Source: Xenococcaceae cyanobacterium MO_188.B32
GTDB taxonomy: Bacteria > Cyanobacteriota > Cyanobacteriia > Cyanobacteriales > Xenococcaceae
DNA: 29,967 nucleotides
Direction of reading: 5' to 3'
NCBI GenBank assembly: GCA_030065635.1
Contig: JASJDJ010000056.1
Coordinates: forward strand, 1-29,967
Shown: positions 1 to 18,698 of the stretch, piece after piece
Position numbering within the stretch: position 1 is the stretch's first letter
Layout: each line of letters starts with the position of its first letter
The notes under the pieces: generated by a model
Told to the model about the DNA's origin: nothing
What the model saw: the letters and a program-made list of their open reading frames with translations, nothing else
Database searches by the model: none
Program-made: the position numbers and the translations under genes

Positions 1-701
1 CTACTATTCAGTCAGATTTGGATATACCCGACCCATTGCCTCACGGTCACTGTATTGGGTTAGACGTGGGTTTGTTATCCTATTGTGCGACAAGTGATGG
101 TTTTGTTGAACCTGGACGTAAATTTTTCAAGACGCTGTACCGTCGGCTGAAAGTGCTACAAAGCAGACTGTCTAAAAAACAAAAACGCTCCAAGAACTAC
201 GAAAAAGCCAGAAAAAAAGTAGAAGCAATGCACAATCATATTGCCTTCAAGCGTAAAGATTACCAGTTCAAGCTTGCTCATAAACTCTGTGATATGGCAG
301 ATACTATCTTTGTAGAAGATATAGACTTTCGTATCATGGCTAAAGGGTTTCTAGGCAAGCATACGGTTGATGCTGGATTCGGTCAGTTTCGTTCTCTTCT
401 CAAATATGTAGGTAAACGACGCAATGTCTTTGTGGCAGAAGTTGACCACAGAGGCAGTAGTCAGACTTGTCCTAACTGTCGCATTTCTGTCAAGAAGGAG
501 TTAGAGGATAGAGTCCACTCATGTCCTGAGTGTTTGTATGAAACCGACAGAGATATCGCATCGGCTCAAGAACTGTGTAATCGAGGCATAGAAATGCTTA
601 GTACCCAAGGGCTTTGGGGGAAAGAAATAGGCTGTCAAGTCGGGCTGTCGGGGGCATTTTGCCTAGATAAGTGGCGCGGGGCAGCAAAGTCTCTAGCGTG
701 A
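1..701 (+). CDS. tnpB: IS200/IS605-family TnpB (OrfB) RNA-guided endonuclease, C-terminal part. The reading frame is open to the window edge, so the N-terminus lies outside the window.
   Basis: RuvC-I motif GLDVGL, RuvC-II IFVEDI, zinc finger CPNCR...CPEC, RuvC-III DRDIASAQ. Stop codon at 699-701. No in-frame stop between position 1 and the listed ORF start at 18. Confidence 0.8.
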   Translation, partial: TIQSDLDIPDPLPHGHCIGLDVGLLSYCATSDGFVEPGRKFFKTLYRRLKVLQSRLSKKQKRSKNYEKARKKVEAMHNHIAFKRKDYQFKLAHKLCDMADTIFVEDIDFRIMAKGFLGKHTVDAGFGQFRSLLKYVGKRRNVFVAEVDHRGSSQTCPNCRISVKKELEDRVHSCPECLYETDRDIASAQELCNRGIEMLSTQGLWGKEIGCQVGLSGAFCLDKWRGAAKSLA

Positions 702-773
702 GCTGGAGAAGCCCGCTCTCTATCCAAAGGATGAGAGTCGGGAGTAGTCACTTTTAAATTTAATTCTGCTTCG
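560..773 (+). ncRNA. Putative TnpB omega-RNA (right-end RNA): 3' end of tnpB plus the IS right end, with terminal hairpin 712-742 and a possible guide of about 20 nt at 754-773. Boundaries are approximate.
   Basis: Hairpin cccgCTCTCTATCCaaaGGATGAGAGtcggg lies just after the tnpB stop. The same hairpin and the flanking motif ...tcgggagYagtcact recur in the inverted copy at 12612-12662. Sequence diverges from that copy exactly after ...agtcact at 753, which marks the element end. Confidence 0.3.
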
Positions 774-1280
774 GTCTCACTCTTAAACTTTTGCTGGGAT
801 AGCTTGGTTATTTTTTTTTGAATTGATTCAGATTCTTTGGCAATCTTTTTCTCTAGAGAAGCCAAATCTGATTCAGTTCTCGCTTCACTTTTGACTACCA
901 ACCATCTTTGGCGTATTCCTCCATAATTACTTTCTCTTTCTACCCAGCTATAACCAGGTATTTCACTGCTTTTAAATTCTGAATTCAATTGAGTGCTGAC
1001 CAGATTTTTTGCCTCTTTTATTGATAGGGGAACTCTAGGCACGCCATTGGATTTGTTTCAGTAATTCTAAATTCTCTTTACTGTATAAAGCACTATCTCC
1101 TACTATCGTTGTTTCTAATTTCAGTTGTTGGTGATAGTTTTTAGCTATTTGGCCAAACGCTTTTTTATCATTTTGATTCCCCGATGCTATTTCATTAATA
1201 TTGGTATATTGCCATCTCCTGTGACGATTAAATCTAAAATAAATTGTTTTAAATCTGGTCGATGGTGAGTCAGCGCGGTC
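754..1280 (-). pseudogene. IS1634-family (IS4 superfamily) DDE transposase fragment. It is frameshifted and truncated at both ends, and interrupted at about 754 by the tnpB element.
   Basis: ORFs 635..1042 and 1035..1382 on the minus strand read IVGDSALYSKENLELL and GIRQRWLVVKSEARTESDLASLEKKIAKE...QQKF, typical IS1634 motifs, in two different frames. Neither end is intact. Confidence 0.5.
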
Positions 1281-1302
1281 TTGGGGGTTTCCCCCATGAG
1301 CA

Positions 1303-1585
1303 ACTGCGAACCCGATTATTATAAAGACCCTAACCAGGGAGTTAACCCCGATGAAGTAGTTGCTGTGGGTGCCACAATTCAAGCAGGTGTACTAGCAGGA
1401 GAAGTCAAAGACGTACTTTTACTCGATGTTACTCCTCTATCTCTGGGGGTAGAAACCCTCGGTGGCGTGATGACTAAGTTAGTTCCCCGCAACACCACCA
1501 TTCCCGTACAAAAATCAGAAATTTTCTCTACTGCTGCGGACGGACAAACTAACGTGGAAATCCACGTGTTCACCACGGAGTTAAA
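1303..1585 (+). pseudogene. dnaK: dnaK (Hsp70) internal fragment covering the end of the nucleotide-binding domain, the linker and the start of the substrate-binding domain.
   Basis: Translation [75 protein letters not shown] matches the Hsp70 linker region. Only about 95 codons are present, with no credible start or end. Confidence 0.6.
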
Positions 1586-2680
1586 ATATCCGATACTGCT
1601 TTAGTCGCAGCAGCCGTATTTTCCACTCGCTATATTAGCGACCGCTTCTTACCCGATAAAGCGATCGACCTGGTGGACGAGTCAGCAGCTAAATTGAAGA
1701 TGGAGATTACTTCCAAACCAGAAGAACTCGACGAGATCGATCGCAAAATTCTTCAGTTGGAAATGGAAAAACTGTCATTGAAAAAAGAAACAGACAGTGC
1801 CTCGCTCGAACGTTTAGAAAAACTAGAAAAAGAACTGGCAGATCTTAAAGAACAGCAATCTGCTTTAAACGCCCAATGGCAAGCTGAAAAAGAATTTATC
1901 GCTCGCATTCGCGCCATTAAAGAGGAAATCGAGCGTGTTAATGTCGAAATTCAACAAGCAGAACGGGATTACAACCTCAATCGTGCAGCCGAACTCAAAT
2001 ACGGTACCGTTGCTCGTCTGATCGGTGCGCCTCCAGGATACGTCGGTTATGACGAAGGGGGACAACTCACCGAAGCAATTCGCCGTCGTCCCTATGCAGT
2101 AATTCTCTTTGACGAGATTGAAAAAGCCCATCCCGATGTATTCAACACTATGCTGCAAATTCTCGATGATGGTCGCCTTACCGATGCTCAAGGACATACG
2201 GTGGACTTTAAAAATGCGGTGATTATTATGACCAGCAACATTGGGTCACAATATATACTGGATATTGCGGGAGATGACAGTCGCTACGAAGAAATGCGCG
2301 ATCGCGTAATGGATGCCATGGGTGGTAGTTTTCGTCCTGAATTCCTCAACCGCATCGATGAAATTATTATCTTCCACAGTCTCACCAAAGAACAATTACG
2401 CGAAATCGTCAAGCTGCAAGTTCAGTTCCTCGAACGACGACTGGAAGACAAAAAAATGTCCCTCAAGCTATCCGATGCTGCCCTCGATTGGTTGGCAGAA
2501 GTAGGTTACGACCCCGTTTACGGTGCGCGTCCTCTTAAGCGGGCAATTCAAAAAGAGTTAGAAACCCAAATTGCCAAGAAAATTCTGCGCGGTGAGCTTA
2601 AAGATGGAGATACTATTTTTGTGGATGTAGAAAACGAGCGTTTAGTTTTCAAGCGTCTAGCTCGAGAATTAGTAAGTTAA
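1586..2680 (+). pseudogene. clpB: clpB fragment: end of NBD1, the M-domain, and the C-terminal part of NBD2. About 150 codons, including the NBD2 Walker A, are deleted in frame.
   Basis: [39 protein letters not shown]...RAAELKYGT is joined directly to [46 protein letters not shown]...[14 protein letters not shown]. There is no N-terminal domain and no Walker A GPTGVGKT. It is fused to the dnaK fragment in a different frame. Confidence 0.65.
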
Positions 2681-2738
2681 GTAAAATCCTAATTCGGAGT
2701 TTGATTCATTACCAGTAATTAAAAATAAGGAGAGAGCC

Positions 2739-3191
2739 ATGTTACAACAATCTTTAACCGATCGAGTCCCCACCAAAATACCTTGGTTTTGGTTATTTAT
2801 AATCGCAGTAATTGGTAGCTCCTATGGCTGGATGCTAGCTCAATATAACAGCCTATTTGCCTTGATGGTAACTTTGAGTATTACTCTAGCTATAGCGGTC
2901 GTTCGAGCTAGCCATCGGGCCGGGTTTCCTGTTTGGGCAGGGCTGTGGTCATTGACTTTTGGTACTGTATTTATTGCCATAGGAACTTTAATTTCTATCG
3001 GTGCGTTCGGCTGGGCGATCGCAGTTTTTGCCTGGGGAGCAGGGATTTTTCTCTTGGAACTCGCGATCGCAAAGGTTTCAACTGCGATGAATTTACTCGG
3101 GTTCGAGCCAAGCCAAAGCTCACGGATTTTGGCTACCGTTGCAGCAGGAGGGATTATCTCAGGTTGGATCGCACACCTAATTTTAATTTAG
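2739..3191 (+). CDS. Hypothetical integral membrane protein, about four TM helices.
   Basis: 150-aa ORF with good RBS aaggagag 6 nt upstream. Hydrophobic helices. No family recognised. Confidence 0.55.
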   Translation: MLQQSLTDRVPTKIPWFWLFIIAVIGSSYGWMLAQYNSLFALMVTLSITLAIAVVRASHRAGFPVWAGLWSLTFGTVFIAIGTLISIGAFGWAIAVFAWGAGIFLLELAIAKVSTAMNLLGFEPSQSSRILATVAAGGIISGWIAHLILI

Positions 3192-3253
3192 AGTACTTTC
3201 CTGCAAATAAGACTAAATTGAATTTTTGAATTAGAAGATTGGGAGACCTAACT

Positions 3254-3664
3254 ATGACTAAAAATACCTCTGAAACTAAAGAAACAAATATAGTTCCCGT
3301 CAGTACCGAAACCGATGCCCTGGTAGAAAAAGAAATGGCAGGGGAAAGCGAGCAAATCAAGCAAGAAACTAAAGCTTTAGTCGAAGCAATCAAAAAACGG
3401 GCGCAGTCGGAAATTGAAAATGCTCAAACTCTAACACGGTATGCTTACTTAACAGCTGTCCGCAATGCTAGAGAGGCAGTTGAAAAGAACAAACTAATTG
3501 ACCCCAAACGGATCGAACATTCGGTTGAAATTATTCAAAAAGATGCCCGAGAAAATTGGCAAAAAATCGTTGATGAAATCTCCGATTTGGGCGATCGCCT
3601 CCAAGAAGCTGCTCGGGTTGCTTGGGATATCTTAATGGGTAAAAATTCCTCGGGCAAGAAATAA
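3254..3664 (+). CDS. Hypothetical soluble protein rich in charged residues and alpha-helix. The ORF track starts it at TTG 3239.
   Basis: ORF with GGAGA RBS 7 nt before ATG 3254. No recognisable domain. Confidence 0.5.
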   Translation: MTKNTSETKETNIVPVSTETDALVEKEMAGESEQIKQETKALVEAIKKRAQSEIENAQTLTRYAYLTAVRNAREAVEKNKLIDPKRIEHSVEIIQKDARENWQKIVDEISDLGDRLQEAARVAWDILMGKNSSGKK

Positions 3665-3752
3665 TTGCTCTGGGAAAATACCCTAATCAACTAGGGTATA
3701 GGTAGAGACAAGTCCAATGCAGAAAAATGTCAAGCAAGCATAATTACCAACT

Positions 3753-5072
3753 ATGAGTGCCAACATCAATTCCGATACTAACAAGTTAGGCATTTTCTCC
3801 TTAGCAACCTTACTGGTATCCGCTCACTATGGCTTGGGGTTTCTCTTGGGAACTGCCGAACAAGCTAGGCACCAGGGTATACAGGGTAGTCTCTATGCTA
3901 TTTCTATTGGGTTGGGATTTTTGGCTCTGTTAATTTTGGCAAAATTCTACTGGCAGCAAGTAGAACCAATCTGGACTTTATTGGGCAACCGCTATGGTAA
4001 ATCAGTCAAAGTCGGAGTTGGTTTAATGTCCTGGATGTCGTTAATTGGTATTGAGGCGGTACAAATTATCGCAGGGGCAGCAATTCTGGCTGTGGTAGGT
4101 ATCCCTAAAATAACCAGTATGCTGATATTAGCCCTATTATTTTGTTTACTTTCCCTGCTGCCTGTAGAAAAGTTAAGCTGGGTTTTACGGGGCTTATTGT
4201 TGCTCAATATACTGGTTTTAATTTACAGCCTCTGGGCATTACAGGGTTTATCGGTTATGGCACGAGCGCCCGTTGAATTTCTTACTTCCCTGCCTCAAAT
4301 TGCTCCTGGAGATGTCATTGGCATTATCTTCTGCACTATTATGTTAGTGGCGATCGACATGAAGTGTCAGCAATATCTAGTCCGAGCTAAAGATGTGGGT
4401 ACTGCTATCTGGAGTTGCTTTCTTACTGCTGTAACTCTGATTGCTTTAGCTTTACTAGCGGGAACTATGGCGATCGCTGCTCACCAGGCAGGCATTTTAC
4501 CCCCAAATTTAGATGACAAAGAAACGATCCCCTATATTTTAGCTTGGGTGAGCGGTGGCACAGAGAGGTTTTTAGGCATAGTGGCGATTGCTACTTTAGC
4601 AGTTCCCGCCCTGGGTTTGGGTAGTAGCGTGTTGCGGGTACAAACTAGAACTTTTTTCGATCTAGAGATTTTACCTTTCTGGTTGAGCCAGCGCATCTTA
4701 GTAGCAGCTATTAATGTGCTATTAGCCCTAACAATTGCCATCAGAGGCGGAGAAATTGTCGGTTTAATTCTTTTATTTTACGCTGCTTATCTTTCTGCTG
4801 CTTGGATTCCCTTTATTGCCTACCTGCTAGATTATTTTGATGTTTATGCTTTTTCTAATAACAGCGTCAGGTTTTCTTTAATCATAGGCAGCATCTCTGC
4901 TTTAGTCAGTCTCTTACTAATATTAGTTCGACCTGAAGCCGTATTTCTAGGGAGCGATCGCTTAACTATAACAGTCTTAGGTATGGGTATGGCAACTATG
5001 AGTCTTGTAGTTAATGAATTGGTAGAAAAATTACTTCTTGCTCCTGCGGTAAAAAAAGAAACTGACAACTAA
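3753..5072 (+). CDS. Polytopic membrane transporter with 12-13 TM helices, possibly a sodium:solute symporter-like or other secondary carrier.
   Basis: 439-aa ORF, very hydrophobic with regularly spaced helices. The family is not resolvable by eye. Confidence 0.55.
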   Translation: MSANINSDTNKLGIFSLATLLVSAHYGLGFLLGTAEQARHQGIQGSLYAISIGLGFLALLILAKFYWQQVEPIWTLLGNRYGKSVKVGVGLMSWMSLIGIEAVQIIAGAAILAVVGIPKITSMLILALLFCLLSLLPVEKLSWVLRGLLLLNILVLIYSLWALQGLSVMARAPVEFLTSLPQIAPGDVIGIIFCTIMLVAIDMKCQQYLVRAKDVGTAIWSCFLTAVTLIALALLAGTMAIAAHQAGILPPNLDDKETIPYILAWVSGGTERFLGIVAIATLAVPALGLGSSVLRVQTRTFFDLEILPFWLSQRILVAAINVLLALTIAIRGGEIVGLILLFYAAYLSAAWIPFIAYLLDYFDVYAFSNNSVRFSLIIGSISALVSLLLILVRPEAVFLGSDRLTITVLGMGMATMSLVVNELVEKLLLAPAVKKETDN

Positions 5073-5105
5073 TAATTAACCTTAACTCGAGCGATAATAC
5101 AAAAA

Positions 5106-5273
5106 ATGTTGGTAGAAATCGGTAAAACCCCGGTCATTCTTGGTATAGGAATTGTAGTTCTGGGAGGATTATTGTGGCTCAGTGGGGGAACTTTAAAAAA
5201 CTTGCCCCTCGATCGTCTTCCAGGAGACATTTTAATTCAAATACTATTGTCGCCCCGACAGTTGGTCTATTAA
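5106..5273 (+). CDS. DUF2905-family small membrane protein, 55 aa. It is below the ORF-track size cutoff.
   Basis: MLVEIGKTPVILGIGIVVLGGLLWLSGGTLKNLPLDRLPGDILIQILLSPRQLVY has two TM segments and the LPGDI motif typical of DUF2905. Its 3' end overlaps the convergent gene that ends at 5244. Confidence 0.5.
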   Translation: MLVEIGKTPVILGIGIVVLGGLLWLSGGTLKNLPLDRLPGDILIQILLSPRQLVY

Positions 5274-6497
5274 TTCTAATTGACAATGGATTTCTTGTCG
5301 AACTTTTTTCAGTTCGGAGAGGTTTTCTATTTCTGAAGAGTTAAAACAGGTACGCATTGTAGTTAGAGTTTTTGTGAGTTTTTGAGCGAGTAGTAAGGCT
5401 CGATCGCTCATTTTTTTGATTTGTTGCCGTTCGTGGAGTTTTAAAGCTTTCCCTCTTAAAACCTGAATGGTAATTTCATCTCCCCATTGACTGGGACAAG
5501 CATCAATACGTAACTGTAAACGCTCCTGTTGATAGTGTCTTTCGATCGCTACTTTCTTAGTTTTTTGTAGTGGTTCTAGAGGGAATTTAGCTAAAGTTTT
5601 AATTTCGTTAATTAGGGCTTGAAAAATAGACAGAGATACATCATCTACAGAAGATTGAACAATTCCATCTTGACTCCAGAGGATACGACCTCGATCGCGA
5701 TTTCGCTCTAAATTTAATTTACTTATACTACCATTGAGGATATTGGCGAACAGCTCTTGCCATAATTGTTGAGGAGTCAGCGTTTTGAGAGATTCATGAG
5801 TTAAGCAGTAATTCTCAGATAGTGTCGAGATATCAAAATCTAAAAAGGGGTCTAAATCTAGATTTGGCACCCGTTCGCGATTTTGGTCGGACTCGGATTT
5901 CTTGGACTGACGATTTGGTTCGGTCTGAACTTCGGGTACTAAAGCTAGATCGAGAGTTAAATCGGCAAAAAGTTGTGAGAAAGAATCGGCTTCGGCAGTA
6001 TCTTCCTGAATAGGAGCATAGATAGTAGATTTACTATCTTCGGCTGATATTTCTGGTCTACTTGTCGGGTTTTCTAAGTCTTCGGCTATTATAGTTTCTT
6101 TACTATCAAGGTCATTCTCTTGACTGTTTAGATTAGACTCAAAGGGCATATCGACCACAGTCATTGCTGAATCCTGAGATTTTTTGACAGAAGTTTGAGG
6201 TGAAATATCTGCCTGTGTTTGCTCCATAGTATGGTTCTGTTTGAGATAGGCAGCTAAAACCAACTGATGAGCGTAAGAATCTATACGCTGAATATTAAGA
6301 GTGTAACCTAAAGCACGAACTATTGGACGGACAAAGTCTAAGGCAGTTTTGTCTTCAGGATTGACCATACCCAAGGTCAAACAATCCTGTTCGAGAGATA
6401 AGGGTATAATCTGATACTGTAAACAATGTTCTAAACTCAAAATAGACTGTATTAAATTGATTATTTGTTCATAATCAATATCTGAAGTTTCATTCAT
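5244..6497 (-). CDS. GspE/PilB-like protein with N1 (T2SSE_N) and N2 domains, an acidic linker and no ATPase core.
   Basis: N-terminus IIPLSLEQDCLTLGMVNPEDKTALDFVRPIVRALGYTLNIQRID matches T2SSE_N. C-terminus RILWSQDGIVQ...RLQLRIDACPSQWGDEITIQVLRG resembles the N2 domain of PilB/GspE. No Walker motifs. Confidence 0.5.
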   Translation of the reverse strand: MNETSDIDYEQIINLIQSILSLEHCLQYQIIPLSLEQDCLTLGMVNPEDKTALDFVRPIVRALGYTLNIQRIDSYAHQLVLAAYLKQNHTMEQTQADISPQTSVKKSQDSAMTVVDMPFESNLNSQENDLDSKETIIAEDLENPTSRPEISAEDSKSTIYAPIQEDTAEADSFSQLFADLTLDLALVPEVQTEPNRQSKKSESDQNRERVPNLDLDPFLDFDISTLSENYCLTHESLKTLTPQQLWQELFANILNGSISKLNLERNRDRGRILWSQDGIVQSSVDDVSLSIFQALINEIKTLAKFPLEPLQKTKKVAIERHYQQERLQLRIDACPSQWGDEITIQVLRGKALKLHERQQIKKMSDRALLLAQKLTKTLTTMRTCFNSSEIENLSELKKVRQEIHCQLELIDQLSGRQ

Positions 6498-6689
6498 GGG
6501 AATATTTTATAGTAAATAACACAGTTGAAAATCTGTGAGCTTTAGCTGTTGGAGTATCAAATTAAAGATTATGAATTTAATTTACCCAGATCGACCAAAA
6601 AATCGATCGAACTAACTCTTATTTGTTACTAGCGAGTAGCGTAATAGTGATTAAATAAAGCTAATCTCGATATTTTAATTTTTTAACTT

Positions 6690-7517
6690 ATGACTAATTC
6701 ATCTTCCATCCCAGTTGTAGTCAATGGTGCTGCCGGTAAAATGGGGCGCGAGGTAATTAAAACTGTTTCTCAGGCAGAAGATATGATGCTTGTCGGTGCG
6801 ATCGATCGCAACCCTGATGTTCTCGGTCAAGATGCAGGGGAAATAGCTGGTTGTGGTGAGATAGAAGTTCCCATCGTTAACGATCTTCAAAGTGTTTTGG
6901 TTTTAGCTACTCAGGAGAAAATTCAAGGGGTAATGGTAGATTTTACCCATCCTGATAGTGTCTATGATAATGTACGTAGCGCGATCGCCTATGGTGTACG
7001 TCCAGTAGTAGGGACAACAGGGTTGAGTGACGAACAACTGCAAGATTTGGCTGAATTTGCGGAAAAAGCTAGTACGGGAGCTTTAGTAATTCCTAATTTT
7101 TCCATTGGTATGGTTTTACTACAGCAAGCAGCCATTCAAGCTTCTCAATATTTCGATCATGTAGAGATTATTGAGTTACATCATAATCAGAAAGCAGATG
7201 CTCCTAGTGGAACGGCTATTAAAACGGCGCAAATGTTAGCAGAGTTAGGTAAAACTTATAATCCTCAAGTGGTTGAAGAAACAGAACCTTTAAAAGGTGC
7301 AAGAGGTAGTATAACAGAAGAGAATATTCGTATCCATAGTGTACGGTTACCTGGTTTAATCGCTCATCAAGAAGTTATTTTTGGCGCACCCGGTCAAATT
7401 TATACTCTCAGACACGATACCAGCGATCGATCTTGCTATATGCCAGGAGTTTTACTCGCTATCCGTAAAGTCACTCAACTTACTTCTTTGGTTTATGGTT
7501 TAGAAAAAATATTGTAA
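6690..7517 (+). CDS. dapB: 4-hydroxy-tetrahydrodipicolinate reductase.
   Basis: [16 protein letters not shown]-binding motif, [18 protein letters not shown], and the overall length are typical of DapB. Confidence 0.9.
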
Positions 7518-8236: not shown

Positions 8237-8273
8237 TAGAATGGTTTTTGAGTAACAAAGAAAAAAAATTACA

Positions 8274-8336
8274 CTAACTACTAACTACTAACTACTAACT
8301 ACTAACTACTAACTACTAACTGCTAACTACTAACTA
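8274..8336. repeat. Tandem heptanucleotide array (CTAACTA) with 9 copies, one of them variant CTAACTG. It is of the STRR type.
   Basis: Seen directly in the sequence. It fills the gap between convergent genes 7538..8236 and 8339..9100. Confidence 0.9.
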
Positions 8337-8338
8337 GT

Positions 8339-9100
8339 TTATTTAATCCAACCAAGTCTTGTAGGTTGCTGATATATCTTTTTAAGAGTATTGATATCTC
8401 TAGCAGAAATCGGCGGAAAGTCGCGAACTTGAGAGAAATAAAGAGCATCATTTTGATGGGGACTATGACCCCAAATTCCTAAGGCATGACCGAGTTCATG
8501 ACGAGTAGCAGCTAAAATTGCCTGCTGACTTAAATTGGGAGAAACTTTAATAGTCATGCGATGGGATAGAATTTTGTGGTCTTGCCAATAAAATTGGTAG
8601 CTAGTTTGGGCAGTTATAGCGCGAGGAATATCATAAAGTCTTGTAGCTGGATTGTATTTAACTTTCCTTTCTGGGGTCGATCGCGTGATGATAATATCAG
8701 CTAGTTCTGGATTTTCTATTTCTTGTAGAGGTAGATAGATATTCCATTCGGCGATCGCTTTTTTGACGGCTTCTAACCATTGCTGCTGACGAAGGTTACT
8801 AGCAGAATTATCTGGTGATTCGGTTGGTTTGGCCAAATAAATTTTAACGGGAAATTGTGACCAAATTAAATAACCCAAAGGAGTTGGTTTGATTTGGGTA
8901 AAGTAATCTTCTTGGTTATTTTTATTGTCCCAGTGAGCTAGAGAAGTAGGTAGAGGGTGTACTTTCGCCAGAGGTAATAAACTGCTATCTAGATTATTTA
9001 ATTTTTGCTCTGCTTTTAAAACATTGTGATTTAAAATTATGACCAATATAATTGTCGCGATCGCTATAAATTTGATTCTTAATGACCACCCTAGAATCAT
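8339..9100 (-). CDS. Secreted or membrane-anchored zinc metalloprotease of the metzincin/M10-like type.
   Basis: HELGHALGIWGHS matches the HExxHxxGxxH zinc-binding motif. Hydrophobic N-terminal signal or anchor. Confidence 0.65.
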   Translation of the reverse strand: MILGWSLRIKFIAIATIILVIILNHNVLKAEQKLNNLDSSLLPLAKVHPLPTSLAHWDNKNNQEDYFTQIKPTPLGYLIWSQFPVKIYLAKPTESPDNSASNLRQQQWLEAVKKAIAEWNIYLPLQEIENPELADIIITRSTPERKVKYNPATRLYDIPRAITAQTSYQFYWQDHKILSHRMTIKVSPNLSQQAILAATRHELGHALGIWGHSPHQNDALYFSQVRDFPPISARDINTLKKIYQQPTRLGWIK

Positions 9101-11657: not shown

Positions 11658-12611
11658 TTGGAAGCGAATACCATTGAAATTGCCAAAGAAATTATAGAAC
11701 CAGGGCGATCGCGTCGTTTCGATATTCCCGTCAGTCGTCTACCCACCCAAACTTTATTATCTCTACCTGTTACTGTTGTTAATGGTATTGAAGCAGGGCC
11801 TAAATTATGGCTTAGTGCAGCAATTCACGGTGATGAACTCAACGGTGTAGAAATTATTCGTCAGGTATTAGCCCAAATACAACCAGAACAGTTGCGGGGT
11901 ACTCTAATTGCCGTCCCCATTGTTAATGTTTTTGGTTTTATCGAACAATCTCGTTATTTACCTGACAGAAGAGATTTAAATCGTTCCTTTCCTGGTTCGG
12001 AAACTGGTTCTTTGGCATCTCGTTTGGCAAATTTATTTGTGAGAGAAATAGTAAGCAAAAGTACTCACGGCATTGACTTACATACGGCTGCTATTCATCG
12101 CATTAATCTACCGCAAATTCGGGCTAATCTTGAGGATGGGGAAACTTATCGCTGTGCCAAGGCTTTTGGTACGCCAATTATTATACACGCCACAACTAGA
12201 GATGGTTCTTTACGACAGGCAGCAACCAAAAAAGGTATTCCGATCTTACTTTACGAAGCAGGAGAAGCTTTACGTTTCGATCCTATAGCTATTCGCGCTG
12301 GAGTAGAAGGCATCCTCAGAGTTATAGAATATTTGCAAATGTATCAATTTGATTCTCTTTCTATTCCCTCTACTCCTACAGAAATAAGACAGAGTAAATG
12401 GATTAGGGCATCTAGAGGAGGAATTTTTCATCTAGAAGTTACCTTGGGGGAAAAAGTTGCCAAAAAACAATCGTTAGGCTTTATTACCGATGCCTTTGGC
12501 GAAAATAAAGTTATAGTTCGTGCTAACGTCGAGGGGATAGTTATCAGTCATATTCAGAATCCTCTGGTTAATCAAGGGGATGCGATCGTACACTTAGCAG
12601 TAATCGAATAG
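11658..12611 (+). CDS. Succinylglutamate desuccinylase/aspartoacylase (AstE/AspA) family zinc hydrolase, the third member of the rimK module. It has a TTG start.
   Basis: AAIHGDELNG, DLNRSFPG and DLHTA motifs. 317 aa. The TTG at 11658 is preceded by gggaaaa. Confidence 0.75.
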   Translation: MEANTIEIAKEIIEPGRSRRFDIPVSRLPTQTLLSLPVTVVNGIEAGPKLWLSAAIHGDELNGVEIIRQVLAQIQPEQLRGTLIAVPIVNVFGFIEQSRYLPDRRDLNRSFPGSETGSLASRLANLFVREIVSKSTHGIDLHTAAIHRINLPQIRANLEDGETYRCAKAFGTPIIIHATTRDGSLRQAATKKGIPILLYEAGEALRFDPIAIRAGVEGILRVIEYLQMYQFDSLSIPSTPTEIRQSKWIRASRGGIFHLEVTLGEKVAKKQSLGFITDAFGENKVIVRANVEGIVISHIQNPLVNQGDAIVHLAVIE

Positions 12612-12895
12612 AGTGACTGCTCCCGACGCTCTATCCGTAGGATGAGCGCGGGCTTCTCTAACTCACGCTAGAGATTTTGCTGCCCCGCGCCACTTATCTA
12701 GGCAAAATGCCCCCGACAGCCCGACTTGACAGCCTATTTCTTTCCCCCAAAGTCCTTGGGTACTAAGCATTTCTATACCTCGATTACACAGTTCTTGAGC
12801 CGATGCAATATCTCTGTCAGTTTCGTATAGACACTCAGGACAGGAGTGGATTCTATCCTCTAGTTCTTTCCCTACACTTTGGATTTGTCGTAAAC
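12612..12895 (-). pseudogene. tnpB: Second copy of the IS200/IS605 element, right end (12612-12662) plus the last ~70 codons of tnpB only. It is inverted and truncated by the adjacent MITE-like element.
   Basis: The reverse complement is about 90% identical to 500-753, reading ...LEDRIHSCPECLYETDRDIASAQELCNRGIEMLSTQGLWGKEIGCQVGLSGAFCLDKWRGAAKSLA*. The hairpin 12622-12652 is conserved. The right end abuts the stop of the AstE-family gene. Confidence 0.8.
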
Positions 12896-12897
12896 AC

Positions 12898-12998
12898 TAA
12901 TTATAATGGCATCGCCGGGAGGGGGCTTGAAAACAAAGTTATTCAATTGGGCAGCACAACCAGGGTCTGATTAAGCCCCCTTCCCGCCATTATAATTA
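12898..12998. mobile_element. MITE-like 101-bp non-autonomous element with perfect 13-bp terminal inverted repeats (taattataatggc / gccattataatta) and inner inverted repeats atcgccgggagggggctt / aagcccccttcccgcc.
   Basis: Seen directly. The ends can be read as TA plus attataat TIRs (Tc1/IS630-like) or as an 8-bp palindromic target duplication. A degenerate relative lies at 21690-21771. Confidence 0.6.
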
Positions 12999-13067
12999 GT
13001 TTGGGGGAGTCCATGGATCCCGACTCCTATCCGAAGGATAGGAGCGGGACTTATAGCTCCCCCAAAC
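12999..13067. repeat. 69-bp palindromic element with 11-bp inverted ends gtttgggggag / ctcccccaaac. It encloses a hairpin (13019-13048) related to the tnpB right-end hairpin.
   Basis: cccgaCTCCTATCCgaaGGATAGGAGcggg compared with the right-end hairpin cccgCTCTCTATCCaaaGGATGAGAGtcggg. This is the third copy of this hairpin family in the window. Confidence 0.55.
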
Positions 13068-13146
13068 CCCCTCAAAGGTTAAAAGTCAAACGTTTATTTC
13101 GGTAGAGTTACTTATCTAATCTGTTTGCCAAAATTTTGATGAATAA

Positions 13147-17683: not shown

Positions 17684-18698
17684 TCGGTAAAGCAGTCAAT
17701 TCCCATCTCGTTAGAATTCCCGCATTCAAAACTACTCTGGGCAATTGGTTAAAACAATACCCTGATAGTCAAATTTTAGCTTGGCGAGTGGGAAGCCCCG
17801 CTCCTTGTCGCTCTGCGACAGGAGTCGGGATGAAAACGAGCGCGACAACTTATCGGTCATCGGTTGACAATTTTGAGACAAAATCTTTATGGAACAAGGA
17901 TTCTGGTCGTTGTATAATACATTTGAGCGTATCAATGGGTCGCTAGCTACCGAAGATCGGATAAACAAAAACCTAAAGCTAGCAAGCACCTTGACAATCA
18001 AACATATGGGGTTGCAACCAAAAAATAGTCTCGGTTGGGGACTCGGTGGTTGCGTAAAATGTTTGCCGTACAAAGGAAGCATTTTTAAAACTGTACCCAG
18101 GGACGCTGGGGAATGGAAACTGCCTGCTGACAGCGTACTGTCGGAGATGCATGATGCTTGCATTGTTCATCTAGATAAGTGCTACGCAGGAATACCTAGG
18201 TCGTGAGTCTAGGGAAGCCAGCACCTTATCCGTTAGGATAGGTGTATGGAGAACGTCACCAACAGATACGGGCTACAACCGTGATTATCAACGCTATCCC
18301 TATGGGACTTATTATACGGATGAGCGAATTATTTTCCCCGTTCGCAACCAACGCAATCTAAAATATCATCCCAAAACCATTGTTAGTTACATCTGGGAAA
18401 CGGATACTCAAACACCAAAGAATCAGTTTTCTGGTGCAAGCACTCGATTTAACCACGGGCAACTACAACAAATTGGCGAAAAAATAGTCGAATTTAATGG
18501 TCGTCAAATTAAAGCATATTGGGATAAACAACTAGAAACCGTCGTCGTGACAGAAATGGACGGTACAATTATTCGCAGTTCGACAGCTTTTGCTTTTGTT
18601 TATCCTGCTTACTTCGAGCGATAAAATTCGTTTTACACAAACCGCTTCCTCTCTCATATTTACCAGGGCTATTTCATTCTCAGCAGCCAGATAATAAA

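Follow-up and report, generated by a model that had tools for sequence, protein, structure and literature searches.

A tnpA-less IS200/IS605-type transposon end with a tnpB gene and a predicted omega-RNA scaffold in a Xenococcaceae cyanobacterium

The window analyzed here, a stretch of 29,967 nucleotides from Xenococcaceae cyanobacterium MO_188.B32, begins inside a tnpB gene. The 3′ part of this gene (3–701, plus strand) runs off the window start; its frame is open from base 3 to the TGA stop codon at 699–701 and comprises 232 visible codons without a stop or frameshift. The 232-residue fragment matches both Pfam OrfB_IS605 (PF01385) and Cas12f1-like_TNB (PF07282; residues 126–189 of the fragment) above their cutoffs, and scores 157.4 bits against the NCBIfam guided_TnpB model NF040570, the cutoff of which is 100. 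The catalytic residues, all encoded on the plus strand, were placed by phmmer alignment to ISDra2 TnpB (8bf8): (i) the RuvC-I aspartate (codon 63–65) is the D of GLDVGL (57–74) and is aligned to ISDra2 D191; (ii) the RuvC-II glutamate (codon 315–317) is the E of FVEDI (309–323) and is aligned to E278; and (iii) the RuvC-III aspartate (codon 552–554) is the second D of DRDI (546–557) and is aligned to D361. The zinc-finger cysteines (468–533, plus strand), which are arranged as CPNC (468–479) and CPEC (522–533), also align with those of ISDra2 TnpB. The ISDra2 alignment and the Pfam and NCBIfam matches thus bear out a preliminary description of this DNA, according to which the RuvC motifs and both CxxC pairs are kept. 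Judged from its sequence, the protein can be assigned to its family without ambiguity, and the catalytic half of TnpB in the window is intact.

An intact paralogue of 411 residues is located at another locus, in a related Xenococcaceae genome (L001). The 2 copies are 99.2% identical in DNA over window positions 1–751, differing at only 6 of the 751 bases, and the window fragment is 99% identical to residues 180–411 of the L001 TnpB, which matches the full NF040570 profile with 264 bits. The L001 element spans 1,439 bp (1811–3249), with the 411-codon tnpB (1964–3199) between the left and right ends, and its left end includes a promoter-like TTTACC-17-TGGTATTAT at 1929–1957. The N-terminal WED/REC half of TnpB, on whose integrity the preliminary description made any activity of the gene depend, lies outside the window for the window copy; it is present in L001 and is deleted in a sister assembly (L081, described below).

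A scan of species-representative genomes yielded 80 related loci, the titles of which are cyanobacterial except for one (L066, labelled Hyphomicrobiales). About 74 related copies have the terminus ...AAGCCC-hairpin-GGGAG(G)A(T)GTCAC, and the base that follows is A, C, G, or T. The L001 copy is unrelated to the window from 752 on. Because homology stops after ...GTCAC in the approximately 74 copies and after 751 in L001, the element ends at C751. The preliminary description had placed the right end at 753, as "defined to the base", and had started the flank, and with it the guide position, at 754. The string "agtcact", on which this end was read, stops at 752, and the approximately 74 copies together with L001 put the start of the flank at 752; T752 is common to the window copy and the copy at 12612 by chance. 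The aligned right ends of further copies, which the preliminary description had offered as a check, therefore give a boundary that differs from 753, an outcome it had itself named as speaking against it. The hairpin at 712–742 is real. It was thought to adjoin the flank directly; instead, a conserved single-stranded tail of 9 nt, AGUAGUCAC (743–751, plus strand), intervenes, the GTCAC of which closes the element at 751. The flank TTTTAAATTTAATTCTGCTT (752–771, plus strand), which lies where an omega-RNA would have its guide, extends from the first non-element base onward and is antisense to an IS1634 transposase coding sequence.

The sister assembly L081 matches window positions 183–7042 at 99.985%, and the SNPs that set the window copy apart from L001 are common to both. 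In L081, the element consists of TTTAAC and 59 nt of the left end fused to window position 70 (the junction reads GGATAG followed directly by TTTGTTATCC), by which the aspartate of GLDVG is lost; it also carries a 45-bp insert at window position 180 (L081 6861–6908). Compared with L081, the window copy keeps a further 69 nt of tnpB and is without the 45-bp insert. The 5′ continuation of the window copy was sought by an exact-protein look-up, which returned no record, and the only longer contig is L081, that is to say, the deleted version. These comparisons bear on a serious alternative, to which we give somewhat less than an even chance, namely that the window copy is a dead remnant, with its tnpB truncated at the 5′ end or broken just outside the window, no promoter, and neither nuclease nor guide RNA produced. 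The state of L081, which has the same locus and SNPs, lacks GLDVG, and carries the insert, is consistent with such a remnant, as are the gene fragments that surround the element (IS1634, DnaK, and ClpB pieces), the result of a promoter scan of window positions 1–1300, which found no promoter-like site, and the 2 other copies in the window, which are already gene-less (described below). The additional 69 nt of tnpB without the 45-bp insert argue against it, and so do the 232 codons free of stops and frameshifts, which belong to a copy with only 6 of 751 bases different from the intact L001. The locus also illustrates how rapidly such elements decay in situ between near-identical strains.

Inserts like that of L081, which are GC-rich palindromes of about 45 nt within tnpB or the scaffold and are often in frame, were seen at 8 loci (L081, L022, L044, L045, L052, L054, L064, and L070). 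One example is GAGGCGAGACCCCGCGTCGCCGATAGGCGCAAGGGAACGCTCGCC; these inserts look like very small mobile repeats. A GC-rich palindrome of 37–40 nt, GCGCGGTCTTGGGGGTTTCCCCCATGAGCAACTGC, is located at the junction of the IS1634 remnant and the DnaK fragment (1267–1307); sequences 85%–97% identical to it are found in L010 and, within tnpB, in L060, L063, and L073. The gene fragments at 1281–2680, which adjoin mobile-element debris and are also called in sister assemblies, are an Hsp70/DnaK piece (profile positions 352–440 of 599) and the C-terminal half of a ClpB-like AAA protein. Farther along the window, at 8273–8343, a tandem array of the heptamer ACTAACT, with a reported spacing of 14 nt, lies between 2 convergent ORFs.

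The right flank of the element is an IS1634-family transposase remnant (752–1220, minus strand), of which only an internal fragment with a frameshift near 1035–1042 is left. The NF033559 profile matches on the minus strand in 2 segments of different frames, with profile positions 238–317 in 752–1042 (E 3e-13) and positions 183–232 in 1035 to approximately 1220 (E 4e-9); these matches are below the whole-protein cutoff, and only about 135 of the 483 profile positions remain. Annotated IS1634 genes also match the right flank by blastn, and so do short homologues. The profile and blastn matches support the proposal that the flank is transposase DNA. The further proposal that the element is nested in the IS1634 remnant is only half supported, by the right side, where the DNA from 752 to approximately 1220 is of IS1634 origin. 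In 5 uninterrupted IS1634 relatives (L083, L086, and L091–L093), GAATTAA/G stands immediately before TTTTAAATTT; the homologous junction reads ...GAATTAA/G and then TTTTAAATTTAATTC..., and TTTAAC, the sequence that typically abuts the left end in this family (described below), is present in 0 of the 5. On the other side, the L081 DNA past the left end gave no tblastn match to IS1634 and is unrelated. As read from these sequences, the junction with IS1634 does not resemble the product of a simple canonical insertion.

One explanation would be that the junction between the right end and IS1634 did not arise by canonical insertion directed by the target-adjacent motif (TAM), and that these elements promote rearrangements between copies or integrate at non-TAM sites. 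The absence of TTTAAC in the 5 relatives and the unrelated left flank in L081 are in line with this idea, which we nevertheless regard as unlikely. If it were true, a guide from the window copy would consist of IS1634 sequence without any matching TTTAAC-flanked target, and, with 3 guide-RNA genes in 30 kb, 2 of them without tnpB, orphan guides could be common in the genome. In Crocosphaera watsonii WH 8501, distant IS1634 transposase genes are found less than 2 kb from TnpB elements of the window's TnpB family at 3 separate loci (L058, L072, and L079). These genes are about 36% identical to the window remnant, and their proximity may be due to chance in a genome rich in IS elements, or it may reflect a recurrent association.

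A predicted omega-RNA scaffold of about 150 nt (600–751, plus strand) takes in the last 34 codons of tnpB together with the right end. An alignment was made of the final 215 nt of 63 copies, and RNAalifold on these right ends gave 36 pairs in 5 helices, all of which are described here on the plus strand. Helix 1 (604–608 with 614–618) has changes on both sides in 5 of 5 pairs and is paired in 100% of cells. Helix 2 (631–636 with 680–685) encloses helix 3 (639–655 with 661–675), and the 19 pairs of these 2 helices are paired in 98%–99.5% of cells, with double changes in 6 of them and several invariant G-U pairs. Helix 4 (691–708; 691–694 with 704–708) has a GNRA-type loop, GUGA, which holds the UGA stop codon of tnpB (699–701). 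Helix 5 (712–742; 712–720 with 733–742) is the subterminal right-end hairpin, with double changes in 6 of 8 pairs. A scan for long-range and pseudoknot covariation revealed 2 extra loop-closing pairs and no convincing pseudoknot; the covarying pair 697/702 (CG 31, AU 25, and GC 4) closes the GUGA loop, and the covarying pair 623/628 closes a GAAA loop, which is also of the GNRA type. Some subfamilies have an additional covarying hairpin between helix 3 and the 3′ strand of helix 2.

Standard pairs occupy 97.4% of the cells of this alignment, as opposed to 36%–50% when the 3′ partners are slid by 1–3 columns, and 290 cells show double changes versus 24–51 in the slid controls; the observed pairing values were reached by 0 of 500 shuffles. 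At 3 positions, G-U pairs are invariant in 63 of 63 copies. Read on the opposite strand, these pairs would be A-C; the structure is therefore assigned to the plus strand, which is the sense strand of tnpB. A covariance model (R1), which was built from 58 loci with the window sequences left out, matches window positions 600–751 end to end (model positions 1–150) with 144.3 bits and an E value of 7e-29. The minimum-free-energy fold of the single sequence reproduces the scaffold helices, including the hairpin at 712–742 (z = −2.5). In Rfam 15, no family reaches its gathering score in the window, and nothing relevant was found up to E = 10 in 1–1100. Covariance analysis and structure prediction at the right end thus yielded a covarying RNA of 5 helices at approximately 600–751, which goes beyond the one hairpin of the preliminary description. 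The core of that description, that is, the 3′ half of a TnpB gene with its RuvC triad and zinc finger intact, a right-end hairpin, and a flank placed where the guide of an omega-RNA would be, holds and is strengthened by the scaffold data. The predicted structure is in keeping with an omega-RNA scaffold: it is about 150 nt long and ends precisely where the transposon does, with GTCAC at 751.

The left-end hairpin of the family, AAGTCCCGC...GCGTCGGGAT, closely resembles helix 5 at the right end, AAGCCCGC...GTCGGGAG. A close left-end counterpart of this kind is also found in the ends of IS608 and ISDra2, and the terminal GTCAC resembles the TTAAC of the candidate TAM, as would be expected if the hairpins were only single-stranded DNA signals by which a Y1 TnpA recognizes the ends, with no RNA involved. 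We consider this highly improbable, given that helices 1–4 have no left-end counterpart and reach 150 nt into the gene, that the invariant G-U pairs, the GNRA-type loops, and the extra covarying helices in subfamilies are the pattern of a folded RNA, and that TnpA recognition elsewhere requires just a subterminal hairpin. Helix 5 is probably used by TnpA as a DNA hairpin as well, and part of its conservation may be unrelated to RNA. Weak NCBIfam matches to Cas12-type models (C2c8 and Cas12f2), far below the cutoffs, could speak for a type V CRISPR effector or for a domesticated TnpB-like regulator with a dead nuclease (TldR-type) in place of a transposon nuclease. Such a reading is scarcely credible, as all 3 catalytic residues are present, the 30-kb window holds no CRISPR-like array, and the gene is bounded by transposon ends found again at many unrelated loci.

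The window contains 2 further scaffolds, both in gene-less mini elements. The preliminary description had noted an inverted copy at 12612, and this copy (12612–12870) indeed forms inverted arms with the first, 259 nt long and 90% complementary; this second copy, however, is not a mere repeat. It is part of a complete mini element (12613–13077, minus strand), which consists of a left end of about 205 nt, in which an internal palindrome is expanded, followed by the final 258 nt of the element, almost all of tnpB being deleted. A TTTAAC (13078–13083, minus strand), the candidate TAM, abuts its left end. The R1 model scores 143.5 bits on its scaffold (12613–12764), which shows compensatory changes in helices 4 and 5 relative to the first copy. 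In another assembly (L089), the same insertion site carries a longer copy with tnpB; the deletion of tnpB in the mini element therefore happened in place. L089 2199–2891 is identical to window positions 12612–12871 over approximately the first 160 nt and only 91% identical over 260 nt, a pattern that suggests gene conversion or recombination between copies. The mini element lies one base past the stop codon of an AstE/AspA-like gene (11658–12611), and its guide position is antisense to the 3′ end of this gene.

The third scaffold is more diverged (18092–18259, plus strand). It ends in ...GAACGTCAC, with GTCAC at 18259, and its flank starts at 18260. The R1 model matches it over the full model length with 85.2 bits and an E value of 1.5e-16, and its helices are compensated. 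No tnpB coding sequence is present upstream of this scaffold; a hairpin at 17794–17832 (plus strand), AAGCCCCGCTCC...GGAGTCGGGAT, resembles the left-end hairpin of the family. This second mini element (17794–18259), a diverged member of the same superfamily, was missed by the repeat searches and was found by the covariance model.

In a survey of 25 left flanks of the family, 18 have TTTAAC directly at the left end and 22 have TTAAC. The L001 and mini-element flanks show no target duplication, and terminal inverted repeats are absent. No Y1 (HUH) TnpA is encoded within the elements, where the interval from the left end to the start of tnpB is just about 150 nt. An IS608 TnpA sequence, which served as a search probe only, found just 2 homologues over the 80 loci (L037 and L053), both in unrelated neighbouring IS605 elements. 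With no tnpA inside, the element is therefore non-autonomous, which defines the IS1341-type subgroup. An empty site was sought for the mini element at 12613–13077, and all 4 of the 4 contigs with an identical neighbouring gene were occupied; a search for the joined-flank pattern in metagenomes gave no match. Because these searches found no empty site, it is by analogy that TTTAAC is read as part of the target and not of the element. Our literature searches found no paper linking a TTTAAC TAM to TnpB and no experimental study of this cyanobacterial TnpB subfamily.

Taken together, the window locus is an ordinary TnpB/omega-RNA transposon end of the tnpA-less IS200/IS605 type. We regard it as very probable that window positions 1–751 are the 3′ half of an IS200/IS605-family transposon that lacks tnpA (IS1341-type) and belongs to Pleurocapsales-type cyanobacteria, the mechanism of which can be outlined by analogy. 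By analogy with a published system (PMC10055086), TTTAAC would be the TAM and GTCAC the transposon-encoded end motif. As in the published ISDra2 and Geobacillus work, the guide RNA would be made from the tnpB transcript, with the promoter in the left end, and would extend approximately 16–20 nt into the flank (752 onward), this part being the guide. TnpB loaded with this guide would cut DNA where TTTAAC precedes the flank sequence. The TTTAAC-plus-flank sequence would be the scarless joint that is left after excision by a Y1 TnpA supplied in trans, and repair from a sister copy would then restore the transposon. At the occupied site, the flank is preceded by GTCAC in place of TTTAAC, which would protect it from cleavage. 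Such TnpB homing and retention have been described, and so have PATE-like elements whose omega-RNAs serve in trans (PMC10055086). Gene-less mini elements with complete scaffolds, like the 2 in the window, would likewise need TnpB made elsewhere.

Among known systems, TnpB of Deinococcus radiodurans ISDra2 with its omega-RNA (PDB 8BF8, 8EXA, and 8H1J) belongs to the same protein family, with the catalytic triad and the zinc finger aligned to those of the window protein. The 2 systems are also alike in the position of the scaffold, which extends over the 3′ end of tnpB and the right end, in a guide that is, or here would be, derived from the flank, and in a T-rich motif of 5–6 nt beside the left end, here a candidate TAM. 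They differ in that the protein match is distant (phmmer E 2e-16 over approximately 180 residues) and in that the window family is without tnpA, its scaffold has no Rfam match, and its stop codon is located in the loop of helix 4. The TAM of ISDra2 is TTGAT, whereas the candidate here is TTTAAC. The element resembles the IS1341 group, an ISfinder class within the IS200/IS605 family to which we assign it, in having only tnpB, a length of approximately 1.44 kb (L001 1811–3249), subterminal hairpins, and neither terminal inverted repeats nor target duplication. The ISGst and PATE-like elements of Geobacillus stearothermophilus are mostly tnpA-less copies with common ends and clade-specific TAM and end motifs, and their gene-less mini elements still encode omega-RNAs that need TnpB in trans (PMC10055086). 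The window shows the same trio of one tnpB copy and 2 gene-less copies. By contrast with Geobacillus, the window elements come from another phylum and sequence family, have yielded no candidate TnpA, and are known from sequence.

Conceptually, the locus adds little, being a transposon of textbook type whose protein family is already annotated in databases as an RNA-guided endonuclease. What it provides, for a TnpB subfamily that is widespread in cyanobacteria and matches no Rfam family, is a well-supported model of the secondary structure together with exact boundaries; the parameters are a scaffold of about 150 nt, the end GTCAC, and the candidate TAM TTTAAC. The covariance model could guide the annotation of cyanobacterial genomes and tests of TnpB as a compact editor.
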